Positions 5,049-62,072 of a stretch of DNA of 64,000 nt are shown piece by piece. The position numbers and the translations under genes were made by a program. Origin of the DNA: Bdellovibrionota bacterium (GTDB lineage Bacteria; Bdellovibrionota_C; UBA2361; JBIIDM01); the NCBI GenBank assembly GCA_044238365.1, contig JBIIDM010000001.1, positions 8,769-72,768 on the forward strand. Reading direction: 5' to 3'. The first letter of the stretch is position 1. Each line of letters starts with the position of its first letter. The notes below the pieces were generated by a model that was not told where the DNA came from, ran no database searches, and saw only the letters and a program-made list of their open reading frames with translations.

Positions 5049-6110
5049 CTAGTCTACTGACTCCTGGCGATCACCAAAAGATCTCTGAGCTAGGCCTACA
5101 GTCTGAGCAAACTGACTACACCGACTTATCAATTGGTCCTTATCCAATCCATCTGCAAAATTAACGCGGGTAAAGGGATCTAATATTGAAACATCACACC
5201 CCAGCTCTTCCCTCAACTTCTCAATCAAACCACCTAACAAACTAGTTCCTCCACTAAGTAAGACATTATCGATGCCCCCCTCAGCGCCCGAGGCATTCCA
5301 AAAATAACTCAGCTGCCTGCTAAGCTCCGAAACAGAATGTTCCACGAACTCTTCTACAATCAACGAAGCCTTTTCATCGGTGAGATTTAATTTTAATTTC
5401 TCCGCCTCTTCGATTGATATCTCCATCTCTTTTGAAATCTCCTCTGAAATAGTTTTTCCTCCGAGCGATATATCTCCTGCAAAAAGGCAATTTCCACCTC
5501 GGCAGATGTTGATTCCAGTGTATCTACCCCCTATATTGACCAGTGAAACTGTTTTTTCGACTAGAGAAGGATAGTTAAACTCAAAGCAGTTTTGCAAAGC
5601 AAACTGATCAACATCAACAATCCCGACGCTTAAACCTGCCTCATCAAATACTTCCACAAAGCGATCCACAACATCTTTCTTAACTGCAACTATCATAACT
5701 TCGTAATGATTCTTTCCTGCTTTGCCGATTACATGAAAATCAAGATAAACACTGTCTGCACCATGAGGAATAAAATTTGGAGCTTCAAATTCAATATGCT
5801 CACGCATTTCTTCTAGGTCCATGACCGGCAACCTCTGCTTCTTAGTGAATACACTAGGAGCAGGAACAGCTGTAACGATTTTCTTGTCCTGCAGGGTATA
5901 CTTCTGAGAAATTTCTCGGAGTAGATCGGCCACCTTTTCTACTCTCGAAATGGTGTTCTGTGCAAACACGTCAAAGCCATATTCAAAGTGACCAAAATTC
6001 ATAATAGTTAAAGAGTCATCTGCCCCCCTATCAACATCAAGCAGTTTTATCGCTGTTGCCCCAATATCGATGGCGATATATTTGTGCCTCTTTTCGAAAA
6101 AATTAATCAT
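5049..6110 (-). CDS. pilM: Type IV pilus assembly ATPase-fold protein PilM.
   Basis: 353 aa with an actin-like/FtsA-like fold signature (IAIDIGATAIKLL, GGGTS-like C-terminal motifs). It is the first gene of the pilMNO-Q cluster. Confidence 0.85.
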   Translation of the reverse strand: MINFFEKRHKYIAIDIGATAIKLLDVDRGADDSLTIMNFGHFEYGFDVFAQNTISRVEKVADLLREISQKYTLQDKKIVTAVPAPSVFTKKQRLPVMDLEEMREHIEFEAPNFIPHGADSVYLDFHVIGKAGKNHYEVMIVAVKKDVVDRFVEVFDEAGLSVGIVDVDQFALQNCFEFNYPSLVEKTVSLVNIGGRYTGINICRGGNCLFAGDISLGGKTISEEISKEMEISIEEAEKLKLNLTDEKASLIVEEFVEHSVSELSRQLSYFWNASGAEGGIDNVLLSGGTSLLGGLIEKLREELGCDVSILDPFTRVNFADGLDKDQLISRCSQFAQTVGLAQRSFGDRQESVD

Positions 6111-6486: not shown

Positions 6487-6569
6487 CTAACTTTGCAACC
6501 TAAGTTTCGGATAAGAAAAAAGGTAAGTGACTAAAGCAATTTTAGTCACTTACCTTTTTTCTTATCCGA
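6487..6569. repeat. Perfect 39-bp inverted repeat with a 5-nt loop (mini palindromic element). Its ends are related to the termini of the 180-bp MITE-like elements.
   Basis: The sequence aacctaagtttcggataagaaaaaaggtaagtgactaaa / gcaat / tttagtcacttaccttttttcttatccgaaacttaggtt was read directly. The arms resemble the element A/B terminus aacctgagttcgacgtaagaacaaaggtaa. Confidence 0.9.
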
Positions 6570-6688
6570 AACTTAGGTTGTCAGGTATTTTCCAGGTAGG
6601 GCGGCGTGTTAGAACACGTTTTGGAGCAGCTCAAATCTAAGGATGGCAATAATACAATTTTTTGGTGCTATATAGTGTCTACTCGATT

Positions 6689-8816: not shown

Positions 8817-8832
8817 AGGACATGTATTTAAT

Positions 8833-9008
8833 AACCTGAGTTCAACGTAAGAACAAAGGTAACTGGTTGAAATTGCTTTACAAACGAGGTGAGAGTGATA
8901 TCAAAGCGCAGGCTGAAGCTTGTTACGTCGAGCATTTTATATCATGAGCAACGAAGTGGATGAAGTAATTTCATCCATTTACCTCAGTTCTTACGTCTAA
9001 CTCAGGTT
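8833..9008. mobile_element. MITE-like palindromic repeat element, copy A (~176 bp, non-coding).
   Basis: Terminal inverted repeats aacctgagttcaacgtaagaac ... gttcttacgtctaactcaggtt enclose an internal imperfect palindrome. It is about 90% identical to copy B at 18979-19160. It is intergenic, between the coiled-coil gene start and the VWA gene end. Confidence 0.8.
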
Positions 9009-9145
9009 ATAAAATTCAGAGCTCAAAAAGGTGCTCAATCTACTAAAGATTATTCACGAAACGAGCCCCCATGGTGGTATGAAGTCCCTTGAAGGTGACG
9101 GATTCTGAATAATCCCAGCTAAAACCGTATCACACTTTGATAAGA

Positions 9146-18951: not shown

Positions 18952-18978
18952 GATGTCAATATTCCCAAAAAAATTATT

Positions 18979-19160
18979 AGCCTGAGTTCGACGTAAGAAC
19001 AAAGGTAAATGGTTGAAATTGCTTTAGAAACGAGGCGTGCAGTGATATAAAAGCGCAGGCTGAGAAGCTTGCTACGTCGAGCATTTTATATCATGAGCAA
19101 CGAAGTGGATGAAGTAATTTTAACCATTTACCGCACAGTTCTTACGTCGAACTCAAGTTA
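18979..19160. mobile_element. MITE-like palindromic repeat element, copy B (~182 bp). It is inserted between the ABC ATPase and permease genes of one operon.
   Basis: The ends are cctgagttcgacgtaagaac ... gttcttacgtcgaactcaagtt. The internal sequence aligns to copy A over its full length. The element abuts the ATPase stop codon. Confidence 0.8.
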
Positions 19161-19934
19161 TTAGCTGGCTCCGTGCTTAGTCTCGCCACCATTCGAGGAT
19201 GGAATTGCGTCATCATTTTCGATGGGTTTATCGTAGCTAACACACTCAAGAAACAGTTGCTCAAGAGTTCGATCTCTTGTTATTTCTGCGAGTTTTCCCT
19301 CCCGTACAATCGTTCCCCTATTAATAATAACAACCTTGCTGCAGACCATGGTAACTTCTGGAAGGATATGGGTACTCAACAATAAAGTCTTTTCTTTGCC
19401 CAGGTCCTTGATCAGGTTTCTAATATCTATGATTTGACGCGGATCTAACCCACTCGTAGGCTCATCCAGAATCACCACTTGAGGATCGTGAACTATTGCC
19501 TGTGCAAGGCCAACCCTCTGCCGATACCCCTTGGAAAGCTGACCACAAAGGCGCCGAAACACATCCTTGAGAAAACAACGCTCGGCTGCTTTCTCAACAC
19601 TTTCCTTTAAATTTTTGCTCGCTACTCCTTTAATCCGTGCTACAAAATACAGGTACTCCTCCACTGACATCTCCTCATACAAAGGGGGATTTTCCGGAAG
19701 ATACCCGATTACCCGCCTTACCTGGTCAGCTTCTTTTTTTATGTCAAATCCGGCTATTTTTGCCGTTCCAGATGAAGGCGGCAAAAAAGTAGACAACATT
19801 CGAATGGTAGACGTCTTTCCGGCACCGTTTGGACCGAGAAACCCGACTATCTCACCTCGTTCAGCAGTAAAACTAACTTGATTTACGGCCTTATATTCTC
19901 CGTATGCTTTAGAAAGTTTATGTACCTCGATCAT
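19161..19934 (-). CDS. ABC transporter ATP-binding protein (GldA-like).
   Basis: Walker A GPNGAGKTS, ABC signature LSKGYRQRV and Walker B ILDEPTSGLD are all present. Confidence 0.9.
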   Translation of the reverse strand: MIEVHKLSKAYGEYKAVNQVSFTAERGEIVGFLGPNGAGKTSTIRMLSTFLPPSSGTAKIAGFDIKKEADQVRRVIGYLPENPPLYEEMSVEEYLYFVARIKGVASKNLKESVEKAAERCFLKDVFRRLCGQLSKGYRQRVGLAQAIVHDPQVVILDEPTSGLDPRQIIDIRNLIKDLGKEKTLLLSTHILPEVTMVCSKVVIINRGTIVREGKLAEITRDRTLEQLFLECVSYDKPIENDDAIPSSNGGETKHGAS

Positions 19935-22690: not shown

Positions 22691-22814
22691 CTCTTTGTTA
22701 CTCAAAAGAAGACTTATAGATTCCTAGTAACTCTACTCAGGTGCCCTCAACATAAATGCGCCCCAAAAGCGAGCTAACCAGCTGTAACTGCCAGTGATTT
22801 TTCAAGGTCGGGGA

Positions 22815-22912
22815 AAGTGATTGTTTTGTGAATGAGGCGTGGTACTCCAGGTCGCAGTGAACAAAATCAATCACTGGACGAAGAGATTGGGAAAATACCT
22901 GAGCAGTTACCT
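22815..22912. repeat. Degenerate or chimeric repeat fragment (copy D) sharing modules with element C.
   Basis: gaggcgtggtactccaggtcgcagtga (22834-22860) matches 36276-36303 in about 25 of 28 positions. It also shares gacgaagagat and a cctgag..cagttaccttt end-like segment. A local 14-bp inverted repeat flanks the shared module. Confidence 0.6.
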
Positions 22913-23785: not shown

Positions 23786-23949
23786 CTTAAAAAAATTTAA
23801 AACACAACGTTCAAACCCAGACGATACGCAAAAAGGGCCTTAAGTGACTCTGATTACCTCCTCTCTTCTCATATTATAAGTTGCTCGACCTAGCATGCTA
23901 TGCCGCGCTAATCTCATTAACGCCTGGTGTCTAAAGTAATTCTATCCCG

Positions 23950-23976
23950 TTACCTTTGTTCTTATCCGAAACTCAG
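23950..23976. repeat. Solo terminal-repeat remnant of the mini-palindrome subfamily.
   Basis: ttacctttgttcttatccgaaactcag closely matches the right arm of the 6487-6569 element (ttaccttttttcttatccgaaacttagg). No partner arm is visible nearby. Confidence 0.55.
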
Positions 23977-24102
23977 CTTATTACGGTGCTACCCATTTAG
24001 AGGAAATTTTAAAACTGTTACAAAACACGACGCTTCTGAGGTATGATGCTATGCCGATACTAATCGTGGCATCCTAAATTAAAGAAAGAAAAGAAAAAAA
24101 CA

Positions 24103-32823: not shown

Positions 32824-33270
32824 TTAAAGTCGGGGAGCTCCTATTACGCCTGCCCCATCAATAAACACCAGATACGCTCCGAGATACCCAACAAACACTA
32901 AGACACCGATAAGGGTCAAGAATATCATCCAGTAGAGCACATTAAAACCCACTTGCATCTTTACCACGTACGGTTTCATAAACCCTAACGCTGGAAGAAG
33001 CAACGCACCGACAAGAACAACCTTACCGACCCGATGGTGAATCGCTATATCATCTTCCGGAATCAGAAATGTTTTAGACGCAAACGACGACGCCAGATAG
33101 CCGGTGAAGAAGGCGAGCACTACCATAACCGCACCGAAAATCTGAAGAATCCGGACCGCGATATGGGATTTTTCACCAATGAGCCCCTGCAAGACTTCTA
33201 TCACTAGCGCAGCTATGAACGCACACAAGGGAAATGACGCAAAAAAGGGATGATAGGCAAGGTGATTCAT
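32824..33270 (-). CDS. Small polytopic membrane protein (hypothetical).
   Basis: 148 aa with 4 predicted TM segments. Confidence 0.4.
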   Translation of the reverse strand: MNHLAYHPFFASFPLCAFIAALVIEVLQGLIGEKSHIAVRILQIFGAVMVVLAFFTGYLASSFASKTFLIPEDDIAIHHRVGKVVLVGALLLPALGFMKPYVVKMQVGFNVLYWMIFLTLIGVLVFVGYLGAYLVFIDGAGVIGAPRL

Positions 33271-33326
33271 GTGTTATAAAGTCAGTCACTAATTCTGTTT
33301 TAACTAACCCGAATTTTTCGTCCTAA

Positions 33327-33491
33327 AAAGAGCAGCCTTGCGGTTTAAAGCGGCTCCATATATTTGAAATTACAAAGAATTTAGTGATTTTTGGTGACAA
33401 TCAAATATCACCGATACGATGAGATCCAAAATCGCTAAATTCTTTGTAATTTCAGCTAGATGGGCCACTTCAAACCGCAAGGCTGCTCTTT
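33327..33491. mobile_element. Second, unrelated palindromic repeat-like element (~165 bp).
   Basis: The ends are aaagagcagccttgcggtttaaag ... ccacttcaaaccgcaaggctgctcttt, a perfect 19-bp core inverted repeat. The internal sequence ttgaaattacaaagaatttagtgatttt pairs with aaaatcgctaaattctttgtaatttcag. It lies in the divergent promoter region between the membrane protein and the Wzc-like gene. Confidence 0.75.
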
Positions 33492-33863
33492 CTAGACTCA
33501 TGGAAGGAACCACCGCCAGTAGTTACCATACTTCGTGAATTCAGATTACAAGTAAAGAGGGTAGTTACGAAACGCTCAGAATGCATCGGACCCTGACTAC
33601 CGGTCTGGATCGAACAAACCACAGAACTCGCCGATTCCCGTCAAAAAAATTAGTTAAGAAACGCTGAAAAACGCACCGTCTTGCAACACTATCCGGTAAG
33701 CGAATTTCGTAACGAAATCCAGTGATAACACGCTGATATTAATATAACTTTCGAGCCTTAAAACATACTGTTCATTTTTTTAACCCCTTATTATTGGTTA
33801 AGTTACCATAATACGGTAAAAAGTAGAGGCGTCTATATTTAAACTTTTGAGGCCACAATCAAC

Positions 33864-36167
33864 GTGTCGAACAAACATCCAATTCCATATGGCTTTACCC
33901 CTGTTCGGTCATCCGACAGTTCGGACGCCCGGTTGCATAATCAGCTTGTAATACCACCCCATAGGGGCCAACAATTTCCGGTGTACGACGACGCTCTTGA
34001 AGAAGAGAAGACCTTAGCCGATTACCTCGCTATCCTCAAAAAATACGTCAAGTTTCTGGTCGTTTCAACGCTTGTATCAGTGTTCGCCGCGGCAATATAC
34101 GTTCTAGTGACCACCCGTGAATATTCTGCGACAGCAACCCTTCAGATTGATACCTACCTTCCAACGCTTGTGGGCGTCGCTCGGGAAGACGTACTCCGTC
34201 AGCAAACATCAGAAGAAAACTATATATCAAACCAGGTTGCGGCTCTTAGAGGCTACCCTCTTGCGGATCGGGTACTCTCCAAGGAGGACGTGATGAAGGA
34301 ATTCCGGGAACTATATCCCAAAGATGCCAAAGAGGTTGTTCCTGATCCAGACTCTCCATATAAACACTCTGCATCGGATCTGGAAAAATACGTCAAGCTT
34401 TTAAGTATATACCCAATAAGCGACACCTCGCTTGTTAGAATTTCTACGATTACAAAGGCGCCCAAGTTTGCAGCACTATTGGCAAACACTCACGCAAAGG
34501 AATTCATCGAAATGACGAAAAGTTTCCGTCTGAGTGATGATGTTCATAACGTGGAGTTTCTCGGTCAACAAGCCGACGAACTTGAAAAGAAACTCCTCGC
34601 GTCAGAGCAAGGGCTATCAAGATATGCGGAGGCAAACGATATCATCGCATTTGAAAACGGAGATTCGGTCGAGGTCGGTAGACTAAACGGGGCCCATCAA
34701 GCTCATGAAGCTGCGAAAGCCCGGCGTATAGAAGTCGAAAGCAGATATAAAGAGGCTGAAAAGTCGCTCAAAACCGGTACAACGCTAGTCGACGATGCAG
34801 CAATTACCTCCATTCGCCAACAGCTATCCCAATCCCAAGCTGAGTACGCTGAACTGAGCCAGCGATTTAATCCTAGATATCCGAAAATGATAGAGATCCA
34901 GAACAAGATTAGGTCATTAAAGGGTCAGATAGAAATGCAACGGAAAGGGGCACTTCGAACACTGAAGGGTCAGCTGGATGCAGCACTGGCGACGGAGAAA
35001 GATCTGAAGACCGAACTGCAATCCCAAGAAACAAAAGCGTACAGAATTGCTAATGCACTGGTAGAATATAATCGCCTCAAGCGAGAACGAGACTCTCTAA
35101 AGGCATTGCAACAGAACGTTGAAACCCAGCTCCAACAAACCCGCTTTAGTGTAGACAATGCCAATAAAGGCAATATCTATCTGACCGAACCAGCCGTTGT
35201 TCCTGATTCTCCAAGTAAACCTAAAGTGAGCGTAACGCTCCTGTTAGCACTTATTTGCGGACCGATAGTTGGTGCTGCACTGGCGTTCTTGTACGAATCT
35301 TTCGACCAAACGCTAAAAGGTCCGGAAGAATTAGAGAAGGTCCTGCGAACTCCCGGCCTTGGAATCATTCCGCACTACACATTTGACGTTGCTGACTTAG
35401 CGGTGGGTGCCGACGATAACCTACCAGCCCTTGCTACCTTAAACCTTGTATCGATCAGGGAGCCGTTTTCATTAGCAAGCGAAGGATTTAGGACAATCAG
35501 AGCCGGAATTCGCCTATCCTCAGCTGATAAGCCGGTTGAAGTAATCGTGGTAACAAGCAGCGACCAGGGTGAAGGGAAGTCCACATTGGTTGCTAACCTA
35601 GGAGTCGTCTGTGCACAGGATGACGCTAAAACTATCCTGATTGATGCAGACCTGAGAAGGGCAACACTTCATAACTGTTTCGGAATTAGTCATGAAGAGG
35701 CTGGTTTGACCGAGATTCTTACAGGTCAAATGTCGCTTGAAGAATGTATTCAAAAAACTGCTGTAGAAAAATTGGATGTCCTTCCTGCTGGAGGCGCAGT
35801 GCCGAATCCTGCCGAGCTAGTAGGATCAAGAAAGATGAGAGACCTGATTAACTCGCTCCGCGAACAATACGATTATATTATAATCGATACGCCGCCGGTC
35901 GCCCCTGTCGCCGACTCCCTTGTTCTTTCTCCTCTTGCTGACGGTGTGATAATGGTGGTTCGCTCGAAGAAGACCATTAGAAAGGAAGCAAGGAAAACCC
36001 TCTATAAACTAAGGGAGTCCGGATCGAGAATTCTCGGAGTTGTTCTGAACGATGTTGAACCATCAAGAACCCTCATCAAAAGTGACTACCTTATAAAAAG
36101 CAAGCCCCGAGCACGATTCGGCAATCCGAACTGGGAGGAACCAGGAAAAAGCGACAAGGCAGCCTGA
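33864..36167 (+). CDS. Polysaccharide co-polymerase with C-terminal tyrosine autokinase domain (Wzc/GumC-like).
   Basis: Two TM segments flank a long coiled-coil periplasmic domain. The C-terminal Walker A VTSSDQGEGKSTLVANLG and DTPPV motif are present. The C-terminus has only two tyrosines rather than a Tyr-rich tail. Confidence 0.8.
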   Translation: MSNKHPIPYGFTPVRSSDSSDARLHNQLVIPPHRGQQFPVYDDALEEEKTLADYLAILKKYVKFLVVSTLVSVFAAAIYVLVTTREYSATATLQIDTYLPTLVGVAREDVLRQQTSEENYISNQVAALRGYPLADRVLSKEDVMKEFRELYPKDAKEVVPDPDSPYKHSASDLEKYVKLLSIYPISDTSLVRISTITKAPKFAALLANTHAKEFIEMTKSFRLSDDVHNVEFLGQQADELEKKLLASEQGLSRYAEANDIIAFENGDSVEVGRLNGAHQAHEAAKARRIEVESRYKEAEKSLKTGTTLVDDAAITSIRQQLSQSQAEYAELSQRFNPRYPKMIEIQNKIRSLKGQIEMQRKGALRTLKGQLDAALATEKDLKTELQSQETKAYRIANALVEYNRLKRERDSLKALQQNVETQLQQTRFSVDNANKGNIYLTEPAVVPDSPSKPKVSVTLLLALICGPIVGAALAFLYESFDQTLKGPEELEKVLRTPGLGIIPHYTFDVADLAVGADDNLPALATLNLVSIREPFSLASEGFRTIRAGIRLSSADKPVEVIVVTSSDQGEGKSTLVANLGVVCAQDDAKTILIDADLRRATLHNCFGISHEEAGLTEILTGQMSLEECIQKTAVEKLDVLPAGGAVPNPAELVGSRKMRDLINSLREQYDYIIIDTPPVAPVADSLVLSPLADGVIMVVRSKKTIRKEARKTLYKLRESGSRILGVVLNDVEPSRTLIKSDYLIKSKPRARFGNPNWEEPGKSDKAA

Positions 36168-36194
36168 GAAAATCCGGGCACCCCACCACCTGCT

Positions 36195-36350
36195 AACCTG
36201 AGTTCGACGTAAGAACTGCGGTTGCTAGGGTTCGCGAGGTTGGTTGATGTCGAGGCAAGAGGTACTTTCAGGAACGAGACGTGGTACTCCACGTCGCAGT
36301 GACGGAGAGTACCTCTTAACGAAGAGATCAGCCAACCTCGCGAACCCTAG
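36195..36350. repeat. Chimeric repeat element, copy C. It has an A/B-type left terminus plus a different palindromic module.
   Basis: It starts aacctgagttcgacgtaagaac (identical to the B terminus). It then continues with ctagggttcgcgaggttgg ... ccaacctcgcgaaccctag and an inner hairpin gaggtac..gacgtggtactccacgtcgcagtga..gtacctc. No right A/B terminus is present. It abuts the manC stop. Confidence 0.7.
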
Positions 36351-37790
36351 CTAAACGCGGCCGTAGACGTCAGTAAAACGGACGATATCATCCTCACCTA
36401 AGTAGCTTCCTGTCTGCACCTCAATCAGCTCGAGAGGAATCAAACCCGGATTCTTGAGATAGTGCTTGGTTCCTAAGGGGATATACGTCGAGCGGTCCTC
36501 ACCCAGCAAGATCTCCTCATCGCCCCGTCCCACTACCGCGGTGCCTTTTACAACGACCCAATGCTCAGCTCGATGGTGGTGCATCTGAATGGAGAGCTGC
36601 TGGCCCGGATGTACGGTGATTCTTTTTACCTGGAAGCGATCCTCTAGAGCTATCGTCTCATAGCTCCCCCAAGGTCGGTAGACCTTCTTATGAAACTGAT
36701 ATTCTTGGCGTCCCTGAGCCTGCAGGTGGGTTACTATCTTTTTTACCTCCTCCACTCGGTCCTTTGCAGCTATCAAAATCGCATCTGATGTCTCAACTAT
36801 CACTTGGTCGGATATGCCGAGTGCCGCAATCAAGCGTCCTTCTGAGTGGATAAAGCAACCGTGAACATCCTCTACAATTACATCACCGAGGGTTACATTG
36901 TCTGATGAATCTTTGGGTTGAATCTCCCACAGGCTTGACCACGATCCAACATCACTCCAACCAGCCTTGAGAGGAATAGTCACCGCTTTGCTCGTCTTTT
37001 CCATTACCGCGTAATCGATAGAATTCGAGGGGCTGGAATTAAAAGCATCCTCTTCAAGACGAACAAAATCCAGGTCGACCCTTCTATTTTCATAGGCAGC
37101 CTCACAAGCTTTAAGTATCGCTGGTTCAAATTGTCCAAGTTCAGATAAAAAGTTCGCTGCTCCGAATAAGAACATTCCACTATTCCAGAAGTAGTCCCCG
37201 GACTTAACGTACTCCTCCGCCACCTTTAGATTCGGCTTTTCAACAAATCGCGCTATTGGTAGCCAGGAGCCCTTTCCGGCTTCTCCCTTAACTACCTGAA
37301 TATACCCGTAACCCGTATGAGCAGCTTCCGGAACCACACCGAACGTTACCAGCTTACCGATATTAGCAGCTTCAATCCCAGACCTTACAGCCTGATGAAA
37401 AGCACCGACATCCTTGATCACATGATCAGCTGGAAGTATCAACAACAATGCCCCTGAGCCATATCTATGAATACTGTCGAGAGCGGCAACTGCTATCGCC
37501 GGTGCCGTATTCCTGGGTGAAGGCTCCAGGATAATGGTTCCTTTCCCTAAAAGACCCTTTTGCTGAAGTTCTGAAGCAACTATAAAACGATGCTCTGAAT
37601 TAGAGATTATTACCGGTGGTTGAATTTCTTCGCCAATTATATTGTTTCCCTTAACCAGCACCCGATCAATTGTTGCCCCTAAGAGGGAATCATCTCCGAT
37701 GAGTGACAAAAACTGCTTAGGAAACGCCGCCCGAGAAAGAGGCCATAAACGACTTCCCGATCCCCCGGACAAAATCACTGGAACAATCAT
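36351..37790 (-). CDS. manC: Mannose-1-phosphate guanylyltransferase / mannose-6-phosphate isomerase (bifunctional).
   Basis: The N-terminal segment is PVILSGGSGSRLWPLSR. A C-terminal cupin domain is present (HHRAEHWVVVKGTA). Confidence 0.85.
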   Translation of the reverse strand: MIVPVILSGGSGSRLWPLSRAAFPKQFLSLIGDDSLLGATIDRVLVKGNNIIGEEIQPPVIISNSEHRFIVASELQQKGLLGKGTIILEPSPRNTAPAIAVAALDSIHRYGSGALLLILPADHVIKDVGAFHQAVRSGIEAANIGKLVTFGVVPEAAHTGYGYIQVVKGEAGKGSWLPIARFVEKPNLKVAEEYVKSGDYFWNSGMFLFGAANFLSELGQFEPAILKACEAAYENRRVDLDFVRLEEDAFNSSPSNSIDYAVMEKTSKAVTIPLKAGWSDVGSWSSLWEIQPKDSSDNVTLGDVIVEDVHGCFIHSEGRLIAALGISDQVIVETSDAILIAAKDRVEEVKKIVTHLQAQGRQEYQFHKKVYRPWGSYETIALEDRFQVKRITVHPGQQLSIQMHHHRAEHWVVVKGTAVVGRGDEEILLGEDRSTYIPLGTKHYLKNPGLIPLELIEVQTGSYLGEDDIVRFTDVYGRV

Positions 37791-46124: not shown

Positions 46125-46557
46125 AAAATTCTCTCATTAACTCTACAAATAAACTCTATTTAAACACCTTGCGAAAATGGTGATTTCGTACCGCGTACAA
46201 AATCCATCCACACTACTGGCTATAACGTTAACGAACGTAGCTAATGCGGAAACACACAAAGAACTTAAGCTAAAAATCATGAAAATATCCATTGACTTAA
46301 CCCAATATCAACACGGGGTCGGACAGAATTCAGGCTGATCATAGCCGTGCCGATTGGGAAAAAAATTCCATACCAAAGTACGTATCCCTAGAGTTGAGCC
46401 CAATGCAATGTACATCACTTTCCAAAACACAGTCAACCAATACAATAAGTAACTGCACGGGCTCGCCCGGCATGATCGTGAACACCGGAAGTTTTATTTT
46501 ATGTCCAATTTCAAGGCCTTGCCCCCTCCAGTGGCACGAGCTAATCGATAATCCGAC

Positions 46558-49032
<2,475 letters not shown>

Positions 49033-49137
49033 TCATTAGCGCCTTCTGTCACCAGAGTCCCGCCCAACTCCGGTCATTCCCAGCTACAGATATCTAAATC
49101 GAGCAAACCAACCTTGAGCAGCTCGGAAAGAACGCCA

Positions 49138-50199
49138 TTATAAAAACAAAACATCAAAACCTTCGTTCTGTATACTATCGGCCAGTTCCAGGTTGGTCGA
49201 GGTAACAAATACCTGCCATCCTGTAGCCCTTATTACGCGAAGTAAGGACCTTCTACGTTTTTCATCAAGTTCAGAATCAACATCATCAAGAATAAGAACA
49301 GGGGTCTGATGAAGGGAATTAGATAGGTTTTGGGCCGTTGCTACCGTGAGCGCCAATGTTGCAGCCCTTATTTGCCCCTGCGATCCGAACTCCTTAATAG
49401 GCCTCCCACCCATCAGGATCTCCATATCATCAAGGTGGATGCCGATTTGAGGACGTCTGAACCGAAGCTCTTTCTGCAACTGTCTCTCTAATGTGCTGAA
49501 AGCCTCCTGCTCAGATCGAACTACACCAAAGGTTGTCACGTATCTTATTTTGAGATCAACTCCCTCGCCGAATAGCTCTTGAAACACCACCGAAAAATTT
49601 GCATTAAGCTTATCGATTACTTCGTATCGACGCTGAATTATCTCCCAAGCTGATTTTGCAAGTAACTCGTTCCACGTTCTAATATCTGAAGGATTTGCGC
49701 CTTGTTTAAGCAGCGTTCTCTTATGGGCAAGTGTTCGACCATAAAAATTGTACAGCTCTATTAAAGGTGGATTAAGTTCAATAATATGTTTATCAACGAG
49801 CCCCCTCCGTACGACTGCCCCTCCCTTTACGACTCCCAGACTATCAGGGGAAAAACCTATCACCAGAAAACTGCCCACAAAATCCTTGATCTTGGTAATT
49901 AACTTACCATCCCGAGATATCTGCCGTCGCCCGGACTCGACCGTTACTGACAAATTAAAAGAACCAATATCATCGGAACAAAGACCCGAAACTATAGCTG
50001 CAGAGTTTTCATGTTTAATAAGTGCCCGAAGCTTTGAACGCTTCAATGAAACTCCTGTCCCTAACAGATAAATCGCCTCTACCAGATTCGTTTTTCCTCT
50101 ACCATTTTGAGATAGAATAAAATTCAGGCCCCCTCCAAATGAAAATGAGTTTTCCGCAAAGTTCCTAAAATTCTGTAAATACAATGATCGTATCTGCAA
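49138..50199 (-). CDS. recF: DNA replication and repair protein RecF.
   Basis: The Walker A is GQNGRGKTNLVEAIY. It sits in the conserved position between dnaN and gyrB. Confidence 0.9.
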   Translation of the reverse strand: MQIRSLYLQNFRNFAENSFSFGGGLNFILSQNGRGKTNLVEAIYLLGTGVSLKRSKLRALIKHENSAAIVSGLCSDDIGSFNLSVTVESGRRQISRDGKLITKIKDFVGSFLVIGFSPDSLGVVKGGAVVRRGLVDKHIIELNPPLIELYNFYGRTLAHKRTLLKQGANPSDIRTWNELLAKSAWEIIQRRYEVIDKLNANFSVVFQELFGEGVDLKIRYVTTFGVVRSEQEAFSTLERQLQKELRFRRPQIGIHLDDMEILMGGRPIKEFGSQGQIRAATLALTVATAQNLSNSLHQTPVLILDDVDSELDEKRRRSLLRVIRATGWQVFVTSTNLELADSIQNEGFDVLFL

Positions 50200-50214
50200 A
50201 ATCTTCCCCTTCGA

Positions 50215-51324
50215 TTACTCAATTCTTATCGGCATTACCATGGCTATTGAGTGTTCATCATCGCAAGGGTAGAATCTGGCTGGCTCATTTCCATTCAATA
50301 TTTCAATAACGATCTTTTCTGATATCAAAAACGAGCTAACAACATCTATAAGGAACCGAGCATTGAAACCAACACTGATTGGTTCATCGGTACCAACAAT
50401 GACCAACCGTTCTTCACTCTCTCCAAGCTCTGGACTACGGCTTGATATTCGCATGCTATCCTCTGCGATGTCGACCCTTACCCCCTGCCCCTGAGAGGCA
50501 AGGATAAGCGAAACACGGCGCAATGCGTCAGAGAACTCCTGGACCAGGATTTCAATCTTGACTCCTGAGGACTTGGGAAAAGCCCGAGCATAATCGGGAT
50601 AATCAACATCCATAAGACGAAGCGCAAACTTTGAGGAATCACTCTTAAAAACGACAAACCCCCCTCCGAATCCAACTTCAACCTCTTTAAGATGACCATC
50701 GTCAAAAACTCTACGTAGTTCAGAAAGGCCTCTTTTAGGGAAAAGCACCCTATGCCCAAGCCGCAAATCGGGGATATCTCTAGTTGAAAGCGCAAATCTA
50801 TGTCCGTCAGTGGCAACCATAGTTACCCTTCCATCGGAAGTCGGTTCAAAACAAATACCACTCAAATTAAACTTAGCCTCATCATGAGAAGCCGCATAGA
50901 TAGTTCTGTTGATCATTTCAGCAAAAATACGGCAATCGATCTTCCGATCTGTCACCAGGTCTAATCCCGGAATTTTTGGAAACTCAAGAGCGCCCAGCAC
51001 ATTCAATTTATATTTGGTGGTATTAGATTTAATTTCAAGCTTTTTTGCGTCCGAGAGTGAAAGATTCATCAAGCCTGTCGGCAGCTGGCGAACAACATCG
51101 GCAAACATCTTTCCGGGGACTGAAAATGTAGCTGATTGCTTTACTTCGGCAGGTACTTGCATAGAAACAGAAACTTCCAGATCCGTCCCCGACACTTCTA
51201 TTTGCCCATTATCTATCCGCACTAAAAAATAAGACATAATCACAAGAGGAGATTTTTTGCCTATAAATGCCTGGAGTGTATTCAAGGCCTTCGACAAATC
51301 ATCCTGCTGAACGACACACGACAT
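50215..51324 (-). CDS. dnaN: DNA polymerase III beta sliding clamp.
   Basis: 369 aa with a three-domain beta-clamp pattern. It lies directly downstream of dnaA. Confidence 0.9.
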   Translation of the reverse strand: MSCVVQQDDLSKALNTLQAFIGKKSPLVIMSYFLVRIDNGQIEVSGTDLEVSVSMQVPAEVKQSATFSVPGKMFADVVRQLPTGLMNLSLSDAKKLEIKSNTTKYKLNVLGALEFPKIPGLDLVTDRKIDCRIFAEMINRTIYAASHDEAKFNLSGICFEPTSDGRVTMVATDGHRFALSTRDIPDLRLGHRVLFPKRGLSELRRVFDDGHLKEVEVGFGGGFVVFKSDSSKFALRLMDVDYPDYARAFPKSSGVKIEILVQEFSDALRRVSLILASQGQGVRVDIAEDSMRISSRSPELGESEERLVIVGTDEPISVGFNARFLIDVVSSFLISEKIVIEILNGNEPARFYPCDDEHSIAMVMPIRIE

Positions 51325-51637
51325 AAAAGACTCCTATATCTAGATTAAATATATATATTCATAGTAGTAGTAGTAGTTAGGTGTGGTTTCTGTTGATAGA
51401 CTGCCTAACTAATTGAAACAGTAGAACTTCCCAGGCTCGGTTGTTGTGGTTTTTAGCTTGGCGTATTCCCGGGTTATGCCCACAAAAGCATTTTGTGGAC
51501 TATCTAGATATAGATAGTCCACAGGTAGTGCGTAGGTTTTCCACAGGAATTACCGGAAAAAACATAAAAAAATCAACAAGATGGCTCCGTTGATAACAAA
51601 ACCACCGCTTGCGACAATCTAAAATCAGAAACATTCT
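51325..51637. promoter_or_regulatory. Candidate oriC in the dnaA-dnaN intergenic region.
   Basis: DnaA-box-like 9-mers were read directly: TTTTCCACA at 51537-51545, and the inverted pair TGTGGACTA (51494-51502) / TAGTCCACA (51515-51523) around a TCTAGA core. An AT-rich stretch taaatatatatattcatagtagtagtagtag (51345-51376) could act as an unwinding element. Gene orientation and plus-strand G+T richness switch around this locus. Confidence 0.55.
51362..51376. repeat. (TAG)5 trinucleotide microsatellite within the candidate origin.
   Basis: tagtagtagtagtag was read directly. Confidence 0.9.
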
Positions 51638-53194
51638 CTAGCTGAAAAGTTTCCTTTCTATTTCGGAGACAAGTTCTCTCACAGAAGCCTCGTCGCTGAC
51701 CTTGTTTGCGACGACACTCGCGGCGTGGATTACGCTGGAGTGGTCTCGTCCGCCAAATTTTTCGCCAATCTCGGGGTAGGAAGCTGTTGTATGTTTCCTG
51801 CAGAGGTACATGGCTACATGTCGAGGAAACGAGAGATTTTTTGTCCGTCGTTTAGATATTATTTCTGACACTTTGATTGAGAAGTGTTGTGCTACCGCCT
51901 TCTTGATGTCCTCTATGTTGACTGATATTTTTTTCGGTTCTAGTAGGGGTTTGAGGGCCACTTGGGCCATTTGCAGCGTAATTGGAACCTTCTGCAGGCT
52001 GCTAACGGCATGCAATCTGGTTAGTGCTCCCTCTAATTCCCTAACGTTTGAGGAGATATTCTCGGCTATAAGGTATGCAACGTCCTCGGGAAGGTGAAAG
52101 TTCTCAAGGAGAGCTTTGCGTTTAAGAATTGCAGCTCTAGTCTCAAAATCTGGCGCTTGCAGATCCGCCGTTAAGCCCCAGGCAAAGCGGGTCTGAAGCC
52201 GCTCTTCAATTCCATCAATTTCGGAAGGAATTTTGTCAGAAGTCATTACGATCTGACGCTTGCAACTATAAAGGGCGTTAAACGTGTGGAAGAACTCTTC
52301 CTGGGTTCTTTCCTTTCCGCTTATGAACTGAATGTCGTCAATAAGGAGTATCTCAATGCTTCGTAGCCTTGTCTTGAATTCCTCCATTTTTGCGTTCCGA
52401 AGCGCCTGAATGAGCTCATTCGTAAAGGCCTCAGAAGAAATATAAAGCACTTTCGAGTTGGGGTTTCGGCTGAGAGCGGCATTTCCAATCGAGTGTAGAA
52501 GGTGTGTTTTGCCAAGCCCTACGCCGCCGTAGATAAATAGAGGGTTGTAGCTTTCACCTGGTTGTTCAGCGACTCTACAGGCAGCGGCGTTACAGAATTG
52601 ATTGTTGCTTCCAACTACAAAGCTTTGAAAGGTGTATTTGGGGTTTAGGTTGTTGAAAGTGTGGTGATCGTTTGGCGTACTGGTAGATTCGACGGGCTCG
52701 GCGGTGGGACTGGCGTGGCGTCGTTTTATAACGGTTCGAGATGATCCATCAAGTTGGCTTGCTAGTAGCGATTCATTTGGTGCCTTTGGTTCCTGAACAA
52801 CGTACGTGAGAATCAAGTTGGGAACGTTAAGCAATTCCTTAAGAAGCGTTTCTATTCGCCGGGAGTAGTTTCGCTCTATAAGTTGGCACTGAAGTTTTGT
52901 CGGCGCAGAGATTGTTAGGGCTGTTTCGTCAAATTCCCTTACGTCACCTTCTGTAAGTTCAACGATTAGCGGTTCGAAGTATGCGGAAAAGGCATGTTGA
53001 CCTACTTCGGTCTTAATCACCTCCAACATGTCATTCCATGCGTTTACTACTAATCCTTCGTGAATGGGTTCTCGGACAAAAGGTACGCCGTTTTGAAGTT
53101 GGTTGTAGGTGGTGTTCTCTCTAGTTGTGTTTTTGGTTGTGTCACTAGTAGTTGACTGGGTTGTTGATAAAAATAAATCTGGCGCAATATTCAT
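51638..53194 (-). CDS. dnaA: Chromosomal replication initiator DnaA.
   Basis: The AAA+ Walker A is GGVGLGKTHLLHSIG. The C-terminal DNA-binding domain carries GGRDHSSVIHA. The N-terminus has a T/N-rich low-complexity ~50-aa extension before domain I. Confidence 0.95.
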   Translation of the reverse strand: MNIAPDLFLSTTQSTTSDTTKNTTRENTTYNQLQNGVPFVREPIHEGLVVNAWNDMLEVIKTEVGQHAFSAYFEPLIVELTEGDVREFDETALTISAPTKLQCQLIERNYSRRIETLLKELLNVPNLILTYVVQEPKAPNESLLASQLDGSSRTVIKRRHASPTAEPVESTSTPNDHHTFNNLNPKYTFQSFVVGSNNQFCNAAACRVAEQPGESYNPLFIYGGVGLGKTHLLHSIGNAALSRNPNSKVLYISSEAFTNELIQALRNAKMEEFKTRLRSIEILLIDDIQFISGKERTQEEFFHTFNALYSCKRQIVMTSDKIPSEIDGIEERLQTRFAWGLTADLQAPDFETRAAILKRKALLENFHLPEDVAYLIAENISSNVRELEGALTRLHAVSSLQKVPITLQMAQVALKPLLEPKKISVNIEDIKKAVAQHFSIKVSEIISKRRTKNLSFPRHVAMYLCRKHTTASYPEIGEKFGGRDHSSVIHAASVVANKVSDEASVRELVSEIERKLFS

Positions 53195-53614
53195 CTAGAA
53201 ACCAAAAAAAGACGAAAAAGAGAGCATCGGTTCAGTTAGATAGGACTAGTGGAGAGTAGCGAAACCTTAGCAATTTACAACAGTAATATCTAGATAAAAT
53301 CTAGACTAGCGGCTTTAATCTAGTAATATTATAAGGTTGGTTGGTTATTTTTTTTTCTTAGTAAAAGTTAGATAAACTAGATAACGTTTTTCGTTGGCCT
53401 GGAGTGGCTGTGGCAGGGGCGGGGCTTGGGCTTTGATGGGCATTTTAGATGGGGGTGAAATCTAATCGGAGGCTGTGCGGGTTTTGTTCAAGAGGAGCGA
53501 CTCCCGCGTGTGGGTTGATATTAGATATGGCCAAACGCGAATGCGTGGGCCAGCTATTAGGAGTCCCTTCGTGTGTTCTAATTTCAAGGGTCTAGCCCGC
53601 TCCCGTGAGTCTTT

Positions 53615-58496: not shown

Positions 58497-61400
58497 TTAG
58501 GCTGCGTCTTCGAGTTGAAGAGAGGGAACTTCTGAGATAATCGAAGATATCTTTTGTAAGTTTATTAGAACTCCGTCATCTGGTTTTATCGTTAAGCGTT
58601 CCGATATCAGGAGGTTAAGACGCTCCTGAAAGCCTTCCAGCTCCTGGAGTGTCGTATTTATTGAAGCTGCCATTCTAGTGCTTGTGGGTACGCTGTCTGC
58701 CAAATTCTGGATTTTTCGATATTGCGGTTTTAGATATTTATCCCTAAGTGTTTTTAAGACAAAAGGTGTAAACAAGTGTCCGTAAGTGAGAGCTTTAAAA
58801 GATTGCTTTGGTCCACTACACAACTCCCAGTAGATAGGCCGCTTTCCGTACGTCTTTGCGTGTTCCTTAAAAAAATCCTTGAAGAAATAGTTTCGTAAGA
58901 TATTTTCGGCATCCTCGACCTGCGATGTATAACCCGCGCTGAAGAGTCGTTGGGAAAGGTAGTTTAGATTTTTATTTAGGTTTTTTTTGCCATAAGTAAG
59001 GCCAAGGAACACCTTAAATAACTCATACAAATCTCGTGAGGAATCAGAATCAGCATCTTTCGAAAGTAGGACCAGAGAATCCTTCGGACTGCAAGGGTGA
59101 GCTCCAGGCGAATCCTGAATGCCAACCATGTCGAGCTTATATCTACCTAGAATAACCCCAACACCATAGGAGATTAGTCGCTTGACGCAGTCAACTTCTG
59201 ACCAGACCGGGTACGTCGAGGTGCTTCCTTCTGACTCAGACTCCTTTGGTTCAGGTAGTCCAAAGGCTTGTGTGAATATTAGATTGTTCTTGTTTTCGAT
59301 TGATTCAAGCTTCGTTCGTTGGGATTTTCGCATTTCCAGAAAGCTTCTGATGGAATCTTCCAGAGAGATGCTCTTTTCTTTCGGAATAAAGGGCAGCCTT
59401 AGGAATGTCCAGTTTTCTTCGTGGTGCGACATCTCCTCTTTCATTATCTCAACGGCCCGCTCGAAAAGGGGTTTCAGCTTTGGTTGCAATGGCTCTAGGC
59501 CTTTTGCTGGCACCGGTAGGGATGAGATATTTCCCGTCTGGAAATGAAGAGTAGGATTTATCGCTTTTATAAATTTTTCGGCTACCTTACTGCAAAGGTA
59601 GCAGCAGACCGCCTCGAAAACGTCATCCGATGGAAAGATCCCCGATCCGGAAATATCACTGATAAACCCGTAAGGGAGGTATCGTGCTCCAAAGTGACTC
59701 GAACTTACATCCGACCAGGTAACGCATCTTCTAAATTGAAATGCAGGATCACCCAGAGTTCCCTTTGAAGTCTTCCGTAGAGTATGCAAAAATTCAGATA
59801 TTTCTTGGCCGTCATTTTCAAAGTTGATTACATAATGGTGGTTGCCATACCATTGACGGTATTTTCCTCCTTTGTTGTAGGGGAACCATTTTTTACCCGA
59901 TAGGGCAGCTTCTTTTCGAGAAGTACACTCAAAGGCGATCGATTCTTGTGATACTTCAAACCACCGTCGTATAAAGCGCGCATTATTTGAGGTCTGTATC
60001 CCCACGCGTGTAGGATATTTATCACCCAAAAGCGAGTTTTCCCTAAAGGCATCAAAGGCCGCATCTTCGAGCCAGAATGATAGGGGCTTTTCCGGGAGCG
60101 CGTTAAAGTCTTTGTTCGAGCGGAAGTATAGCCAACCACATTCCGGATAGGTAATTGCTTCAATTACTTTGGGTGATTGTACGTCTCTTCCCTTAAAAGG
60201 TTCCAGATTGATGAACACCCCTTTAAAATCTTCAATTCGCTTTTTCTGTAGAGTGAAGGTGCAAATAGGGACGGTAGCGCCATCAAATGCTGAGTACTGA
60301 AGCTTTATAAGTGATGTTATTGTTGTGTTATTTAATACAAAGTCTCTAAGGTTGCGGTACGAAGTGATGAACATCCAAACAAATGGACTCATAAACCCAA
60401 TATGCCCATCATCCTTTGTAAGTTGCCAGTTTCTGATAATAAAAGCAGAGAACATATCTCGGCTGTAAGCCGCATAGTTCGCGTTTAGGTAGCTTCTTAA
60501 ATCATCGGGATAGTATTTCGAACTTAGGTAGGGTGGGTTTGCAAGGACGCAGTCGTATTGAGAGCACAATAGCAGGGCTCGAAGTACCAGTTGCATTAGA
60601 GCGAGAGCATGTTTTCGGGCCGAGGCGTCTTTGGTAGCTATTACGTGATTTAGGAAGTGCACAGCCGTTGTTAGCAATATTTGTTCATGTGCGGGTACAA
60701 TAGTAAGGGACCCCAGTGATGATGCATTTGAAAAATAAGCAGCAAACCGGATAAAGTCATCTTTGCTGATAGACTCAACTATCTGCCCGTTCTCAACACA
60801 GCTGGGGACTCCATAGCGGGTTTTGCCTTTAAATCGACTTACCGTTTCGCTATCTTTTGGGAGGATTTCAGTACAGGCTGCGTTGATCTGAGCTTTGTCG
60901 ACACTCTCTAGCGAGTAAATGTGAGGCACCGGAGTGTCAAAACCATTCAAAATCTTCGGATTGTCTATTCGGGCTCGCATTAGTAAGGCAAAGCTGGCCA
61001 TTTGGGCAGCTCGCTCATCGATATCAAGACCATAGAGGTTTGAATTTAAGATTTTACCCGCGATTTCGGATGGTGAATAGCCCATTTCAAGATACATATC
61101 TTTTAGTGTATCAAAGGCTTCTACAAGAATATGACCTGAACCGCAGGCTGGGTCAAGGATTGTAAGGTTTTCGGGGTTAAGGGGATCTAATTGAGATTTT
61201 GTCCCTTTGGAGCGCTTACTCGTTAGATTTTGCTCGGAAAATTCCGGCATAAGATATTCCCAACGGCTCTTAAGGACCGGTGACCGGTGTGAGCCTAGCC
61301 AGGTTTTTCCGAGGGTGTTCTGGACAAGATAGCGGACAATCCAGCGGGGAGTAAACAGCTGGGTGGCAGCCGGAATATCGCCGGGTTCGAGTTTTTTTCC

Positions 61401-62072
61401 AGTGAGCTCGCGCTTTCTTTGCGCGATATAGTACTGGTAGAGCCAGCCAATGATTTCCACCCCCTCTAACCAATCGGATTCGGGTATTGAAACGACTAAG
61501 TCTCCGATCAAAGACTCTTCTCCAAGAAGAGTGTTCGGTAGCAGGGAGGAAAGCGCTAGTGTTATCTCTTCAAAAAGAAACGGCATAGCACCGTGTAGCT
61601 CGTTACACTGGGAGATAAGAAGAGTTCTAAATATGCTTTCGTTCGACTTTCCCGTTGCTACCATTTCCTTGAGTTGAATAATGTCCCCTGCGTGTGGAAA
61701 TTTCGCGACTTTTTTTGATAATACGCGGAGATTGCTTAGGCTAGGGTCAGTTGCATGGCTCAGGATCTGATGAGAAAGGAAGCCATGAACCTCCATGTAC
61801 CGAAGGGCTACGAGGCGGTTGAACCAAGTATATGAGGTTCGTTCGATTACATCATTGAATGAGTGTGCAGAGAAGAGTTGGGTGAGTTCTTCAAGTATGA
61901 GAGTACACTCATCTTCGGTATAAAATCCGGTAGATTTAAGGACCTTCGATGCCTTTTCAGAAGGGCGAGACCGTTTCGGAGAGAATCCGAGTGAATTTGC
62001 CCGAGAGGCGATAGCTTCGGTGAAGTTTTCTCGAGCTTTGACCGCATATTTTTTTAAGGGTTTAATATTCAT
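58497..62072 (-). CDS. Large PglX-like N6-adenine DNA methyltransferase (BREX PglX / type IIG family), with no partner BREX genes in the window.
   Basis: 1191 aa. The N-terminal KKYAVKARENF ... SYTWFNRLVALRYMEV block matches what I recall of PglX-family N-termini. SAM motif I is ILDPACGSGHILVEAF and catalytic motif IV is VLANPPY. A long C-terminal region follows. No brxA/B/C, pglZ or brxL is nearby. Confidence 0.7.
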   Translation of the reverse strand: MNIKPLKKYAVKARENFTEAIASRANSLGFSPKRSRPSEKASKVLKSTGFYTEDECTLILEELTQLFSAHSFNDVIERTSYTWFNRLVALRYMEVHGFLSHQILSHATDPSLSNLRVLSKKVAKFPHAGDIIQLKEMVATGKSNESIFRTLLISQCNELHGAMPFLFEEITLALSSLLPNTLLGEESLIGDLVVSIPESDWLEGVEIIGWLYQYYIAQRKRELTGKKLEPGDIPAATQLFTPRWIVRYLVQNTLGKTWLGSHRSPVLKSRWEYLMPEFSEQNLTSKRSKGTKSQLDPLNPENLTILDPACGSGHILVEAFDTLKDMYLEMGYSPSEIAGKILNSNLYGLDIDERAAQMASFALLMRARIDNPKILNGFDTPVPHIYSLESVDKAQINAACTEILPKDSETVSRFKGKTRYGVPSCVENGQIVESISKDDFIRFAAYFSNASSLGSLTIVPAHEQILLTTAVHFLNHVIATKDASARKHALALMQLVLRALLLCSQYDCVLANPPYLSSKYYPDDLRSYLNANYAAYSRDMFSAFIIRNWQLTKDDGHIGFMSPFVWMFITSYRNLRDFVLNNTTITSLIKLQYSAFDGATVPICTFTLQKKRIEDFKGVFINLEPFKGRDVQSPKVIEAITYPECGWLYFRSNKDFNALPEKPLSFWLEDAAFDAFRENSLLGDKYPTRVGIQTSNNARFIRRWFEVSQESIAFECTSRKEAALSGKKWFPYNKGGKYRQWYGNHHYVINFENDGQEISEFLHTLRKTSKGTLGDPAFQFRRCVTWSDVSSSHFGARYLPYGFISDISGSGIFPSDDVFEAVCCYLCSKVAEKFIKAINPTLHFQTGNISSLPVPAKGLEPLQPKLKPLFERAVEIMKEEMSHHEENWTFLRLPFIPKEKSISLEDSIRSFLEMRKSQRTKLESIENKNNLIFTQAFGLPEPKESESEGSTSTYPVWSEVDCVKRLISYGVGVILGRYKLDMVGIQDSPGAHPCSPKDSLVLLSKDADSDSSRDLYELFKVFLGLTYGKKNLNKNLNYLSQRLFSAGYTSQVEDAENILRNYFFKDFFKEHAKTYGKRPIYWELCSGPKQSFKALTYGHLFTPFVLKTLRDKYLKPQYRKIQNLADSVPTSTRMAASINTTLQELEGFQERLNLLISERLTIKPDDGVLINLQKISSIISEVPSLQLEDAA

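Follow-up and report, generated by a model that had tools for sequence, protein, structure and literature searches.

A 175-bp palindromic repeat between divergent transcription units of an uncultured freshwater Bdellovibrionota bacterium: probable membership in a small MITE family

Correia elements duplicate a TA dinucleotide of the target, and REPINs are doublets of short REP units that make no target duplication. Prokaryotic MITEs are shorter than 500 bp, carry no transposase, have terminal inverted repeats (TIRs) of about 4–30 bp, are AT-rich, intergenic and dispersed, and give a stable stem-loop transcript (PMC10969869). According to the same review, the direct repeats beside MITEs fade with age, and QMITE2 combines TIRs of 23–29 bp with a core of 113–145 bp, its transcript being predicted to fold very stably (PMC10969869). 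Among autonomous elements, the 14-bp terminal repeat of ISEcp1, of the IS1380 family, begins with CCTAGA (IRL CCTAGATTCTACGT), and the direct repeats that ISEcp1 makes are AT-rich and 5 bp long (PMC6061673).

The palindrome considered here lies in a window of 64 kb (the whole stretch of DNA analysed, 64,000 nucleotides). It resembles the Correia elements of Neisseria, ERIC/YPAL of enterobacteria and Yersinia, and QMITE2 of Coxiella burnetii in its size class (about 100–200 bp), in the lack of a transposase, in its TIRs, in its AT-rich, intergenic and dispersed character, and in the very stable stem-loop predicted for its transcript. It differs from them in several respects: the literature, Rfam and plasmid and phage records gave no described element of similar sequence; its candidate target duplication has 5 bp, versus TA in Correia and 7–9 bp in QMITE2; and the host is an uncultured freshwater bacterium. 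Regulatory effects have been shown for Correia and ERIC. Since the element has most of the features listed in the review, a MITE is its most likely identity, and we consider it probable that the palindrome belongs to a small family of such non-autonomous DNA transposons. The family is apparently undescribed, the literature search having found the terminal sequence in no paper; the kind of element is well known, and the relevance of an apparently new MITE family from an uncultured freshwater bacterium is mainly for annotation.

Structure and extent of the palindrome

The window contains the 20-mer AAAGAGCAGCCTTGCGGTTT in two places only, 33327–33346 on the plus strand and 33472–33491 on the minus strand; shuffled sequence contains on average 0.02 matches to it, and none of 100 shuffles contained two. 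A repeat finder returned outer arms at 33323–33354 and 33464–33495 with 91% complementarity and, adjoining them, inner arms at 33356–33391 and 33428–33463 with 89%. The perfect inverted-repeat ends and the self-complementary interior described in the initial annotation are thus both confirmed. The length of 165 bp given there was too short, 5 bp missing at each end: alignment of the family places the ends at 33322 and 33496 (175 bp), the points at which similarity to three further copies, L068, L069 and L070, begins and stops. In the orientation of L069 and L070 the element lies on the minus strand of the window, and its flanks are unrelated to theirs.

As a hairpin, the element has a left arm at 33323–33391 and a right arm at 33428–33495, which form a stem of 69 bp with seven non-Watson–Crick positions and one 1-nt bulge (33355). 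The stem encloses an asymmetric centre of 36 nt (33392–33427, TCTCAYCGTATCGGTGATAYTTGATTG) with small local hairpins, the sequence and orientation of which are kept in all copies. The calculated RNA fold energy is −94.3 kcal/mol (z = −14.3) for the plus strand and −105.6 kcal/mol (z = −16.1) for the minus strand, values that no shuffle matched on either strand, and the RNA of the element, if transcribed, would form a very stable hairpin. The GC content of the element is 38%, compared with 45% for the window.

The left terminal inverted repeat (33322–33335, CCTAAAAAGAGCAG) is the same 14 nt found at the ends of L068, L069 and L070, and the right one (33483–33496, CTGCTCTTTCTAGA) differs by two changes from the family consensus CTGCTCTTTTTAGG; apart from these two changes, the 14-nt termini are conserved in all copies. 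Every element end reads C-TA...TA-G, and the next base outward is also conserved, giving CCTA...TAGG in L068–L070. The CCTA/TAGG bases are more simply read as part of the element than as target. Insertion of the IS630 type at TA or CTAG, which fits the window copy alone, was downgraded because CCTA/TAGG is conserved as element sequence in L068–L070.

A dispersed family of 175-bp copies

The element is read through by an open reading frame of 43 aa (33373–33501, minus strand), which has been called in metagenome annotations and which we judge to be no real gene. A HMMER search with this ORF against 1.84 billion representative proteins returned five further ORFs (P0018–P0022) with amino acid identities of 56–71% and E values of 2.7e-6 to 3.4e-4. 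They have in common an element-encoded core, ...LKRAVSRSKAAQLAELTSNLAILGLTVSVILDCDPKSLNSL, and their N-termini are unrelated, as would be expected of frames that begin in unique DNA and run on into a copy of a repeat. A word-indexed protein search with the same ORF found only the ORF itself; since a control ORF from a multi-copy palindromic family of the same window (A/B, see below) found nothing, this search is insensitive and its negative result was discarded. P0009, P0010 and P0018–P0022 are artefact ORFs in public gene calls that arise from reading through the repeat, and the element thus yields a spurious 43-aa "hypothetical protein".

At the DNA level, the family is verified at four loci (the window, L068, L069 and L070); P0018 and P0020 are known from their ORFs only, the former as an element-derived ORF behind greA on its contig. 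L069 carries a complete 175-bp copy at 233–407, near fliD, with 83% identity to the window copy over 174 nt (BLAST, E = 5e-50). Another complete 175-bp copy lies at 163–337 of L070, behind a gene for a thioredoxin-like protein, and is 77% identical to that of the window (BLAST, E = 2e-35). The copy in L068 starts at 579 and is truncated at about 693, where it abuts an end of an A/B-family repeat, before a response regulator gene; it is 83% identical to the window copy over 114 nt (BLAST, E = 5e-31). All three complete copies (window, L069, L070) are exactly 175 bp long. None of the flanks of the four copies matches another by BLAST, and all of the DNA-verified copies sit between called genes, at varied positions relative to them.

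Over their shared part, L068 and L069, which sit at separate loci, are identical at 114 of 115 positions, a sign of recent spread. The source samples of the family copies come from the same lakes as the species of the window or its closest relative; it should be noted that the number of copies counted within the 64-kb window is one and that L068–L070 are metagenome contigs that may derive from different organisms. A search of the window with the family profile (nhmmer) gave a single match at 33497–33322 (E = 8e-56), with no second copy or fragment of the 175-bp element in the 64 kb.

The copy in L069 is flanked by TTAAA flush on both sides, a perfect 5-bp duplication. The flanking 5-mers of the older copies agree in three of five positions, both in L070 (ATCAA/ATGAC) and in the window (ATGAG/ACGAA), which fits a target duplication that has faded in the diverged copies, one clean case being no proof.

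Searches of other collections gave no additional members. The 18-nt end of the window copy found only single-arm chance matches of 18–21 nt in unrelated taxa among 185,579 species genomes and the JGI metagenome set, a result of little weight, as the family does not conserve this 18-mer and neither set contains the window locus. In viral contigs, a 16-mer of the window end found nothing, the two-end family pattern had no match, and the conserved inner 17-mer had chance matches. The element had no blastn match to plasmid and phage records.

The A/B palindromic repeats are represented in the window by at least five copies or fragments (6496–6580, 8823–9018, 18975–19163, 23904–23983 and 36186–36222), with ends TAACCTGAGTTCGACGTAAGAAC; one copy has perfect arms of 40 nt. 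They resemble the 175-bp element in occurring in the same genome, in being intergenic and palindromic, and in size, and differ from it in their termini, in having no sequence similarity to it and in their number in the window, where the 175-bp family has one copy. Members of both families stand side by side in L069 (A/B at 1–95) and in L068 (A/B at about 795–820), and in the latter an A/B repeat truncates the 175-bp copy. The initial annotation had treated the palindrome as unrelated to A/B and as evidence of a second MITE-like family in the region, and both statements are supported: no similarity to the other palindromic repeats of the window was found, and 175-bp copies, one of them truncated (L068), occur in unrelated contexts separately from A/B.

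The insertion site and its counterparts in relatives

The 593-bp gap that contains the element separates two divergent units. The minus-strand unit begins with an ORF for a 148-aa membrane protein without a family match (32824–33270), which heads a tightly spaced gene string that continues with pepA and gyrA at spacings of 17–20 nt and then gpsA. On the plus strand, the gap is bounded by a gene for a Wzc-like polysaccharide co-polymerase/tyrosine autokinase (33864–36167). Directly upstream of the 148-aa ORF is a conserved block (33271–33321, minus strand), with homology to the closest relative, L066 (85% at the nucleotide level), as far as 33319, and the element abuts the distal edge of this block.

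On the other side, a degenerate spacer (33497–33585) separates the element from the 3' remnant of a 304-aa gene (33586–33709, plus strand). The remnant corresponds to codons 256–304 with a frameshift and an in-frame stop, as found by tblastn with the proteins of L012 and L010 and by alignment. The 304-aa gene belongs to no Pfam family; four related lineages have it in intact form, placed between the 148-aa gene and wzc. A part of the spacer, 33545–33589, may derive from codons ~54–68 of the lost gene, on the marginal evidence of a local alignment to L066 with a score of 36, which was reached in 3 of 200 shuffles. The element marks a site of recent gene loss beside the capsule/EPS locus.

Contigs of the same species, at 99.6–100% identity, carry the element wherever they reach the site (L001, L002 and L004–L007, and partially L003, L064 and L065), and the locus is identical or nearly so in several lake metagenomes. 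Two single-nucleotide polymorphisms within the species fall inside the element: A/G at 33397, in the centre, and C/T at 33471, which converts an A·C mismatch into an A-T pair. Three independent assemblies (L003/L063, L064 and L065) end inside the element, at 33384–33391, where 28 nt begin that the L069 copy has in identical form (AAAATCACTAAATTCTTTGTAATTTCAA). A repeat that occurs more than once in a sample would be expected to interrupt assembly in this way, and the element is probably what breaks these metagenome assemblies; nearby strain polymorphisms could contribute.

The element is absent from the orthologous site in four lineages, represented by L066, L012–L014, L010/L011 and L009. The nucleotide identity of their 148-aa gene to that of the window is 85% for L066, 79% for L012–L014, 80% for L010/L011 and 77% for L008/L009, the L008 contig ending too near this gene to show whether the 304-aa gene is present. 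The homology of the relatives to the window stops 3–37 nt short of the left end of the element (at 33285–33319). In L066, it extends from the 148-aa gene to 33319, three bases before the element, and resumes at 33586. Neither arm of the palindrome is similar to the sequence of the relatives at this site. Judging from these alignments, in which four lineages lack the element and nothing at the site resembles its arms, it is foreign to this locus and would have arrived after the split from these lineages. A single copy conserved in position across relatives, named in the initial annotation as the sign of an ancient regulatory palindrome, is thus not what the orthologous intergenic regions contain.

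The suggestion, also made there, that the element modulates expression of the EPS locus finds no support in the arrangement of the site. The element is 368 bp from the start of wzc, with the decayed remnant of the 304-aa gene in between, and wzc retains an upstream region of its own: about 280 bp directly before the gene, with operator-like inverted repeats, are conserved in relatives that lack the element. These inverted repeats, at 33780–33801 (TTAACC..GGTTAA) and 33802–33819 (GTTACC..GGTAA), lie about 45–85 bp before wzc and are kept in L012. The distance of the element to the string with the 148-aa ORF, pepA and gyrA is 51 bp, far less than that to wzc. As far as the sequence allows one to judge, both divergent units appear to keep their own proximal control regions, and the simplest reading would be that the spare room between the divergent promoters tolerated the insertion and that the 304-aa gene decayed afterwards. 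A scan for consensus promoters and terminators gave nothing above the shuffle expectation.

Origin of the element and alternative explanations

The features that point to a MITE can be stated together. At 175 bp, the element has as its sole ORF one of 43–47 aa without a coding signature. It has a perfect 20-nt inverted repeat in the window copy and conserved 14-nt ends across the family. The copies are dispersed over four DNA-verified loci with unrelated flanks, with two more seen from ORFs. Four related lineages lack the element at the orthologous site, and the element is AT-rich, lies between genes and has a stable fold (−94 and −106 kcal/mol). The presence of a second MITE-like family, A/B, in the same window also speaks for a MITE-rich host.

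For such an element, we infer the following history. A transposase encoded elsewhere would recognise the two identical ends and cut out or copy the element, which would then insert into AT-rich intergenic DNA and duplicate about 5 bp of the target. Comparison with the relatives suggests that a copy landed, in the ancestor of the species, just beyond the conserved promoter-proximal block of the string with the 148-aa ORF, pepA and gyrA, and that the neighbouring 304-aa gene then decayed by deletions that removed or blurred the target duplication. Today the window copy would most likely be a neutral, passive passenger between two divergent transcription units.

Mobilisation by an IS1380-type transposase is possible. 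The 14-nt ends of the element start with CCTAAA or TCTAGA, similar to the start of the ISEcp1 repeat, and the TTAAA flanks of L069 resemble the duplications made by ISEcp1; the agreement of the termini is limited to the first 6 nt, and the duplication is clear in one copy only. The predicted parent insertion sequence would have CCTARAAAGAGCAG-like ends, encode a DDE transposase and be a member of the IS1380 family. Neither a transposase, of IS1380 type or other, nor a full-length IS with the ends of the element was seen in the scans with the 18-nt window end, and the resemblance is a lead rather than a classification. The self-complementarity over the full length exceeds the needs of a transposase and is not explained by the MITE reading itself.

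This last property raises the question of a route of spread other than a classical DDE transposase that cuts or copies: a RAYT/HUH enzyme might move single-stranded hairpins, as with a REPIN-like doublet, or recombination might be responsible. REP sequences and REPINs are likewise intergenic, hairpin-forming and dispersed, and such a route would suit an element that is a hairpin as a whole rather than at its ends alone, that has a clear target duplication in one of three copies and for which no parent IS was found. We nevertheless regard it as unlikely: there is no short REP-like unit repeated within the element and hence no inverted doublet, the length is fixed at 175 bp with the 14-nt termini as the most conserved outer part, L069 is flanked by a flush 5-bp direct repeat of a kind that HUH-type elements do not make, and no conserved penta- or tetranucleotide lies beside the insertion sites. 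Still further from the data, and extremely improbable, is a one-off palindrome produced by local inverted duplication or template switching during deletion of the 304-aa gene. The adjacent deletion scar and the lack of a clean target duplication at the window copy would agree with such an event, which is in practice refuted by the related copies at unrelated loci; in addition, neither arm resembles the ancestral sequence of the site in relatives. An equally remote reading is that the element encodes a small protein of 43–47 aa and that its palindromic form is incidental. That the ORF is called in several metagenome annotations and has five related ORFs could be taken in its favour, but the start codon falls in DNA beyond the repeat, the N-termini vary from copy to copy, the amino acid identity (56–71%) is below that of the DNA (77–83%), the differences at codon positions 1, 2 and 3 (6/9/5 and 6/13/5) have no third-position excess, and no family match was found.

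The alternative that bears on function is a cis-regulatory or small-RNA hairpin (a 5'-UTR stabiliser, an RNase III target or a supercoil-sensitive cruciform) that tunes the divergent genes and is for this reason nearly perfect. Of 75 pairs, the window copy has 70 Watson–Crick and 5 G-U pairs, much better pairing than in L069 and L070, with 60 and 49 Watson–Crick pairs, respectively. The element stands between divergent units, 51 bp from the first ORF of the gyrA-containing string, and known MITEs can act in this way, as in the cases of Correia (RNase III) and ERIC (RNase E; PMC10969869). Against this, the strand that folds better in the window copy is the opposite of that in L069, the arm mismatches are divided 3:2 between the strands, the copies occupy varied positions relative to genes, relatives run the same genes without the element, and it belongs to no Rfam family. 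The whole window had no match at Rfam gathering thresholds, and a permissive search of the region gave only plant miRNA hairpins far below threshold, which are generic long hairpins (the best, MIR2630, scored 49 against a threshold of 144 bits). Covariation was likewise not significant. In the alignment of four sequences, 88.7% of the cells pair, compared with 34–52% in slid controls, and three pairs are altered on both sides, compared with 2.4 ± 0.8 in shuffles, 231 of 500 of which were as high. A strand-specific RNA, an idea that came from the better minus-strand fold, was rejected on the 3:2 division of the transition mismatches and the preference of L069 for the other strand. Overall, we hold a regulatory hairpin to be improbable.

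The better hairpin of the window copy could reflect either descent from a more perfect master copy or homogenisation of the arms. That it has been kept nearly perfect by selection or arm-to-arm conversion as a working DNA or RNA structure is very unlikely in our estimate. If it were so, the element might act as a cruciform that absorbs negative supercoils between divergent promoters upstream of the gyrA operon or, alternatively, as a 5' hairpin that sets the stability of the gyrA-containing transcript; it would then be a domesticated MITE through which supercoiling or RNA decay is linked with the expression of gyrase and/or capsule genes. Unless the structure of the window copy proves functional, no new biology is to be expected from the element.

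With regard to the surroundings, the minus strand at about 46500–53200 carries gyrB, recF and dnaA, and near 52 kb the sign of the GC skew is reversed; the window is therefore chromosomal and close to the replication origin, which it probably spans. In this origin-proximal region, the palindromic repeats belong to at least three families unrelated to one another. The third repeat is a 128-bp palindrome at 36224–36351, between the convergent ends of wzc and manC, the interior of which (36249–36302) is 78% identical to 22807–22860. Tandem copies of a 15-nt unit (CGCCAGGCGCGCCAC-like, about seven or more) occupy 165–305, at the start of the window. A PilM-like protein encoded at 5049–6110 (minus strand) matches the Amuc_1101 family of Akkermansia below the threshold (E = 1e-48), a weak hint at Verrucomicrobiota. 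A 1191-aa ORF at 58497–62072 (minus strand) has methylase domains of the Eco57I/MmeI type and is likely a type IIG restriction-modification enzyme.
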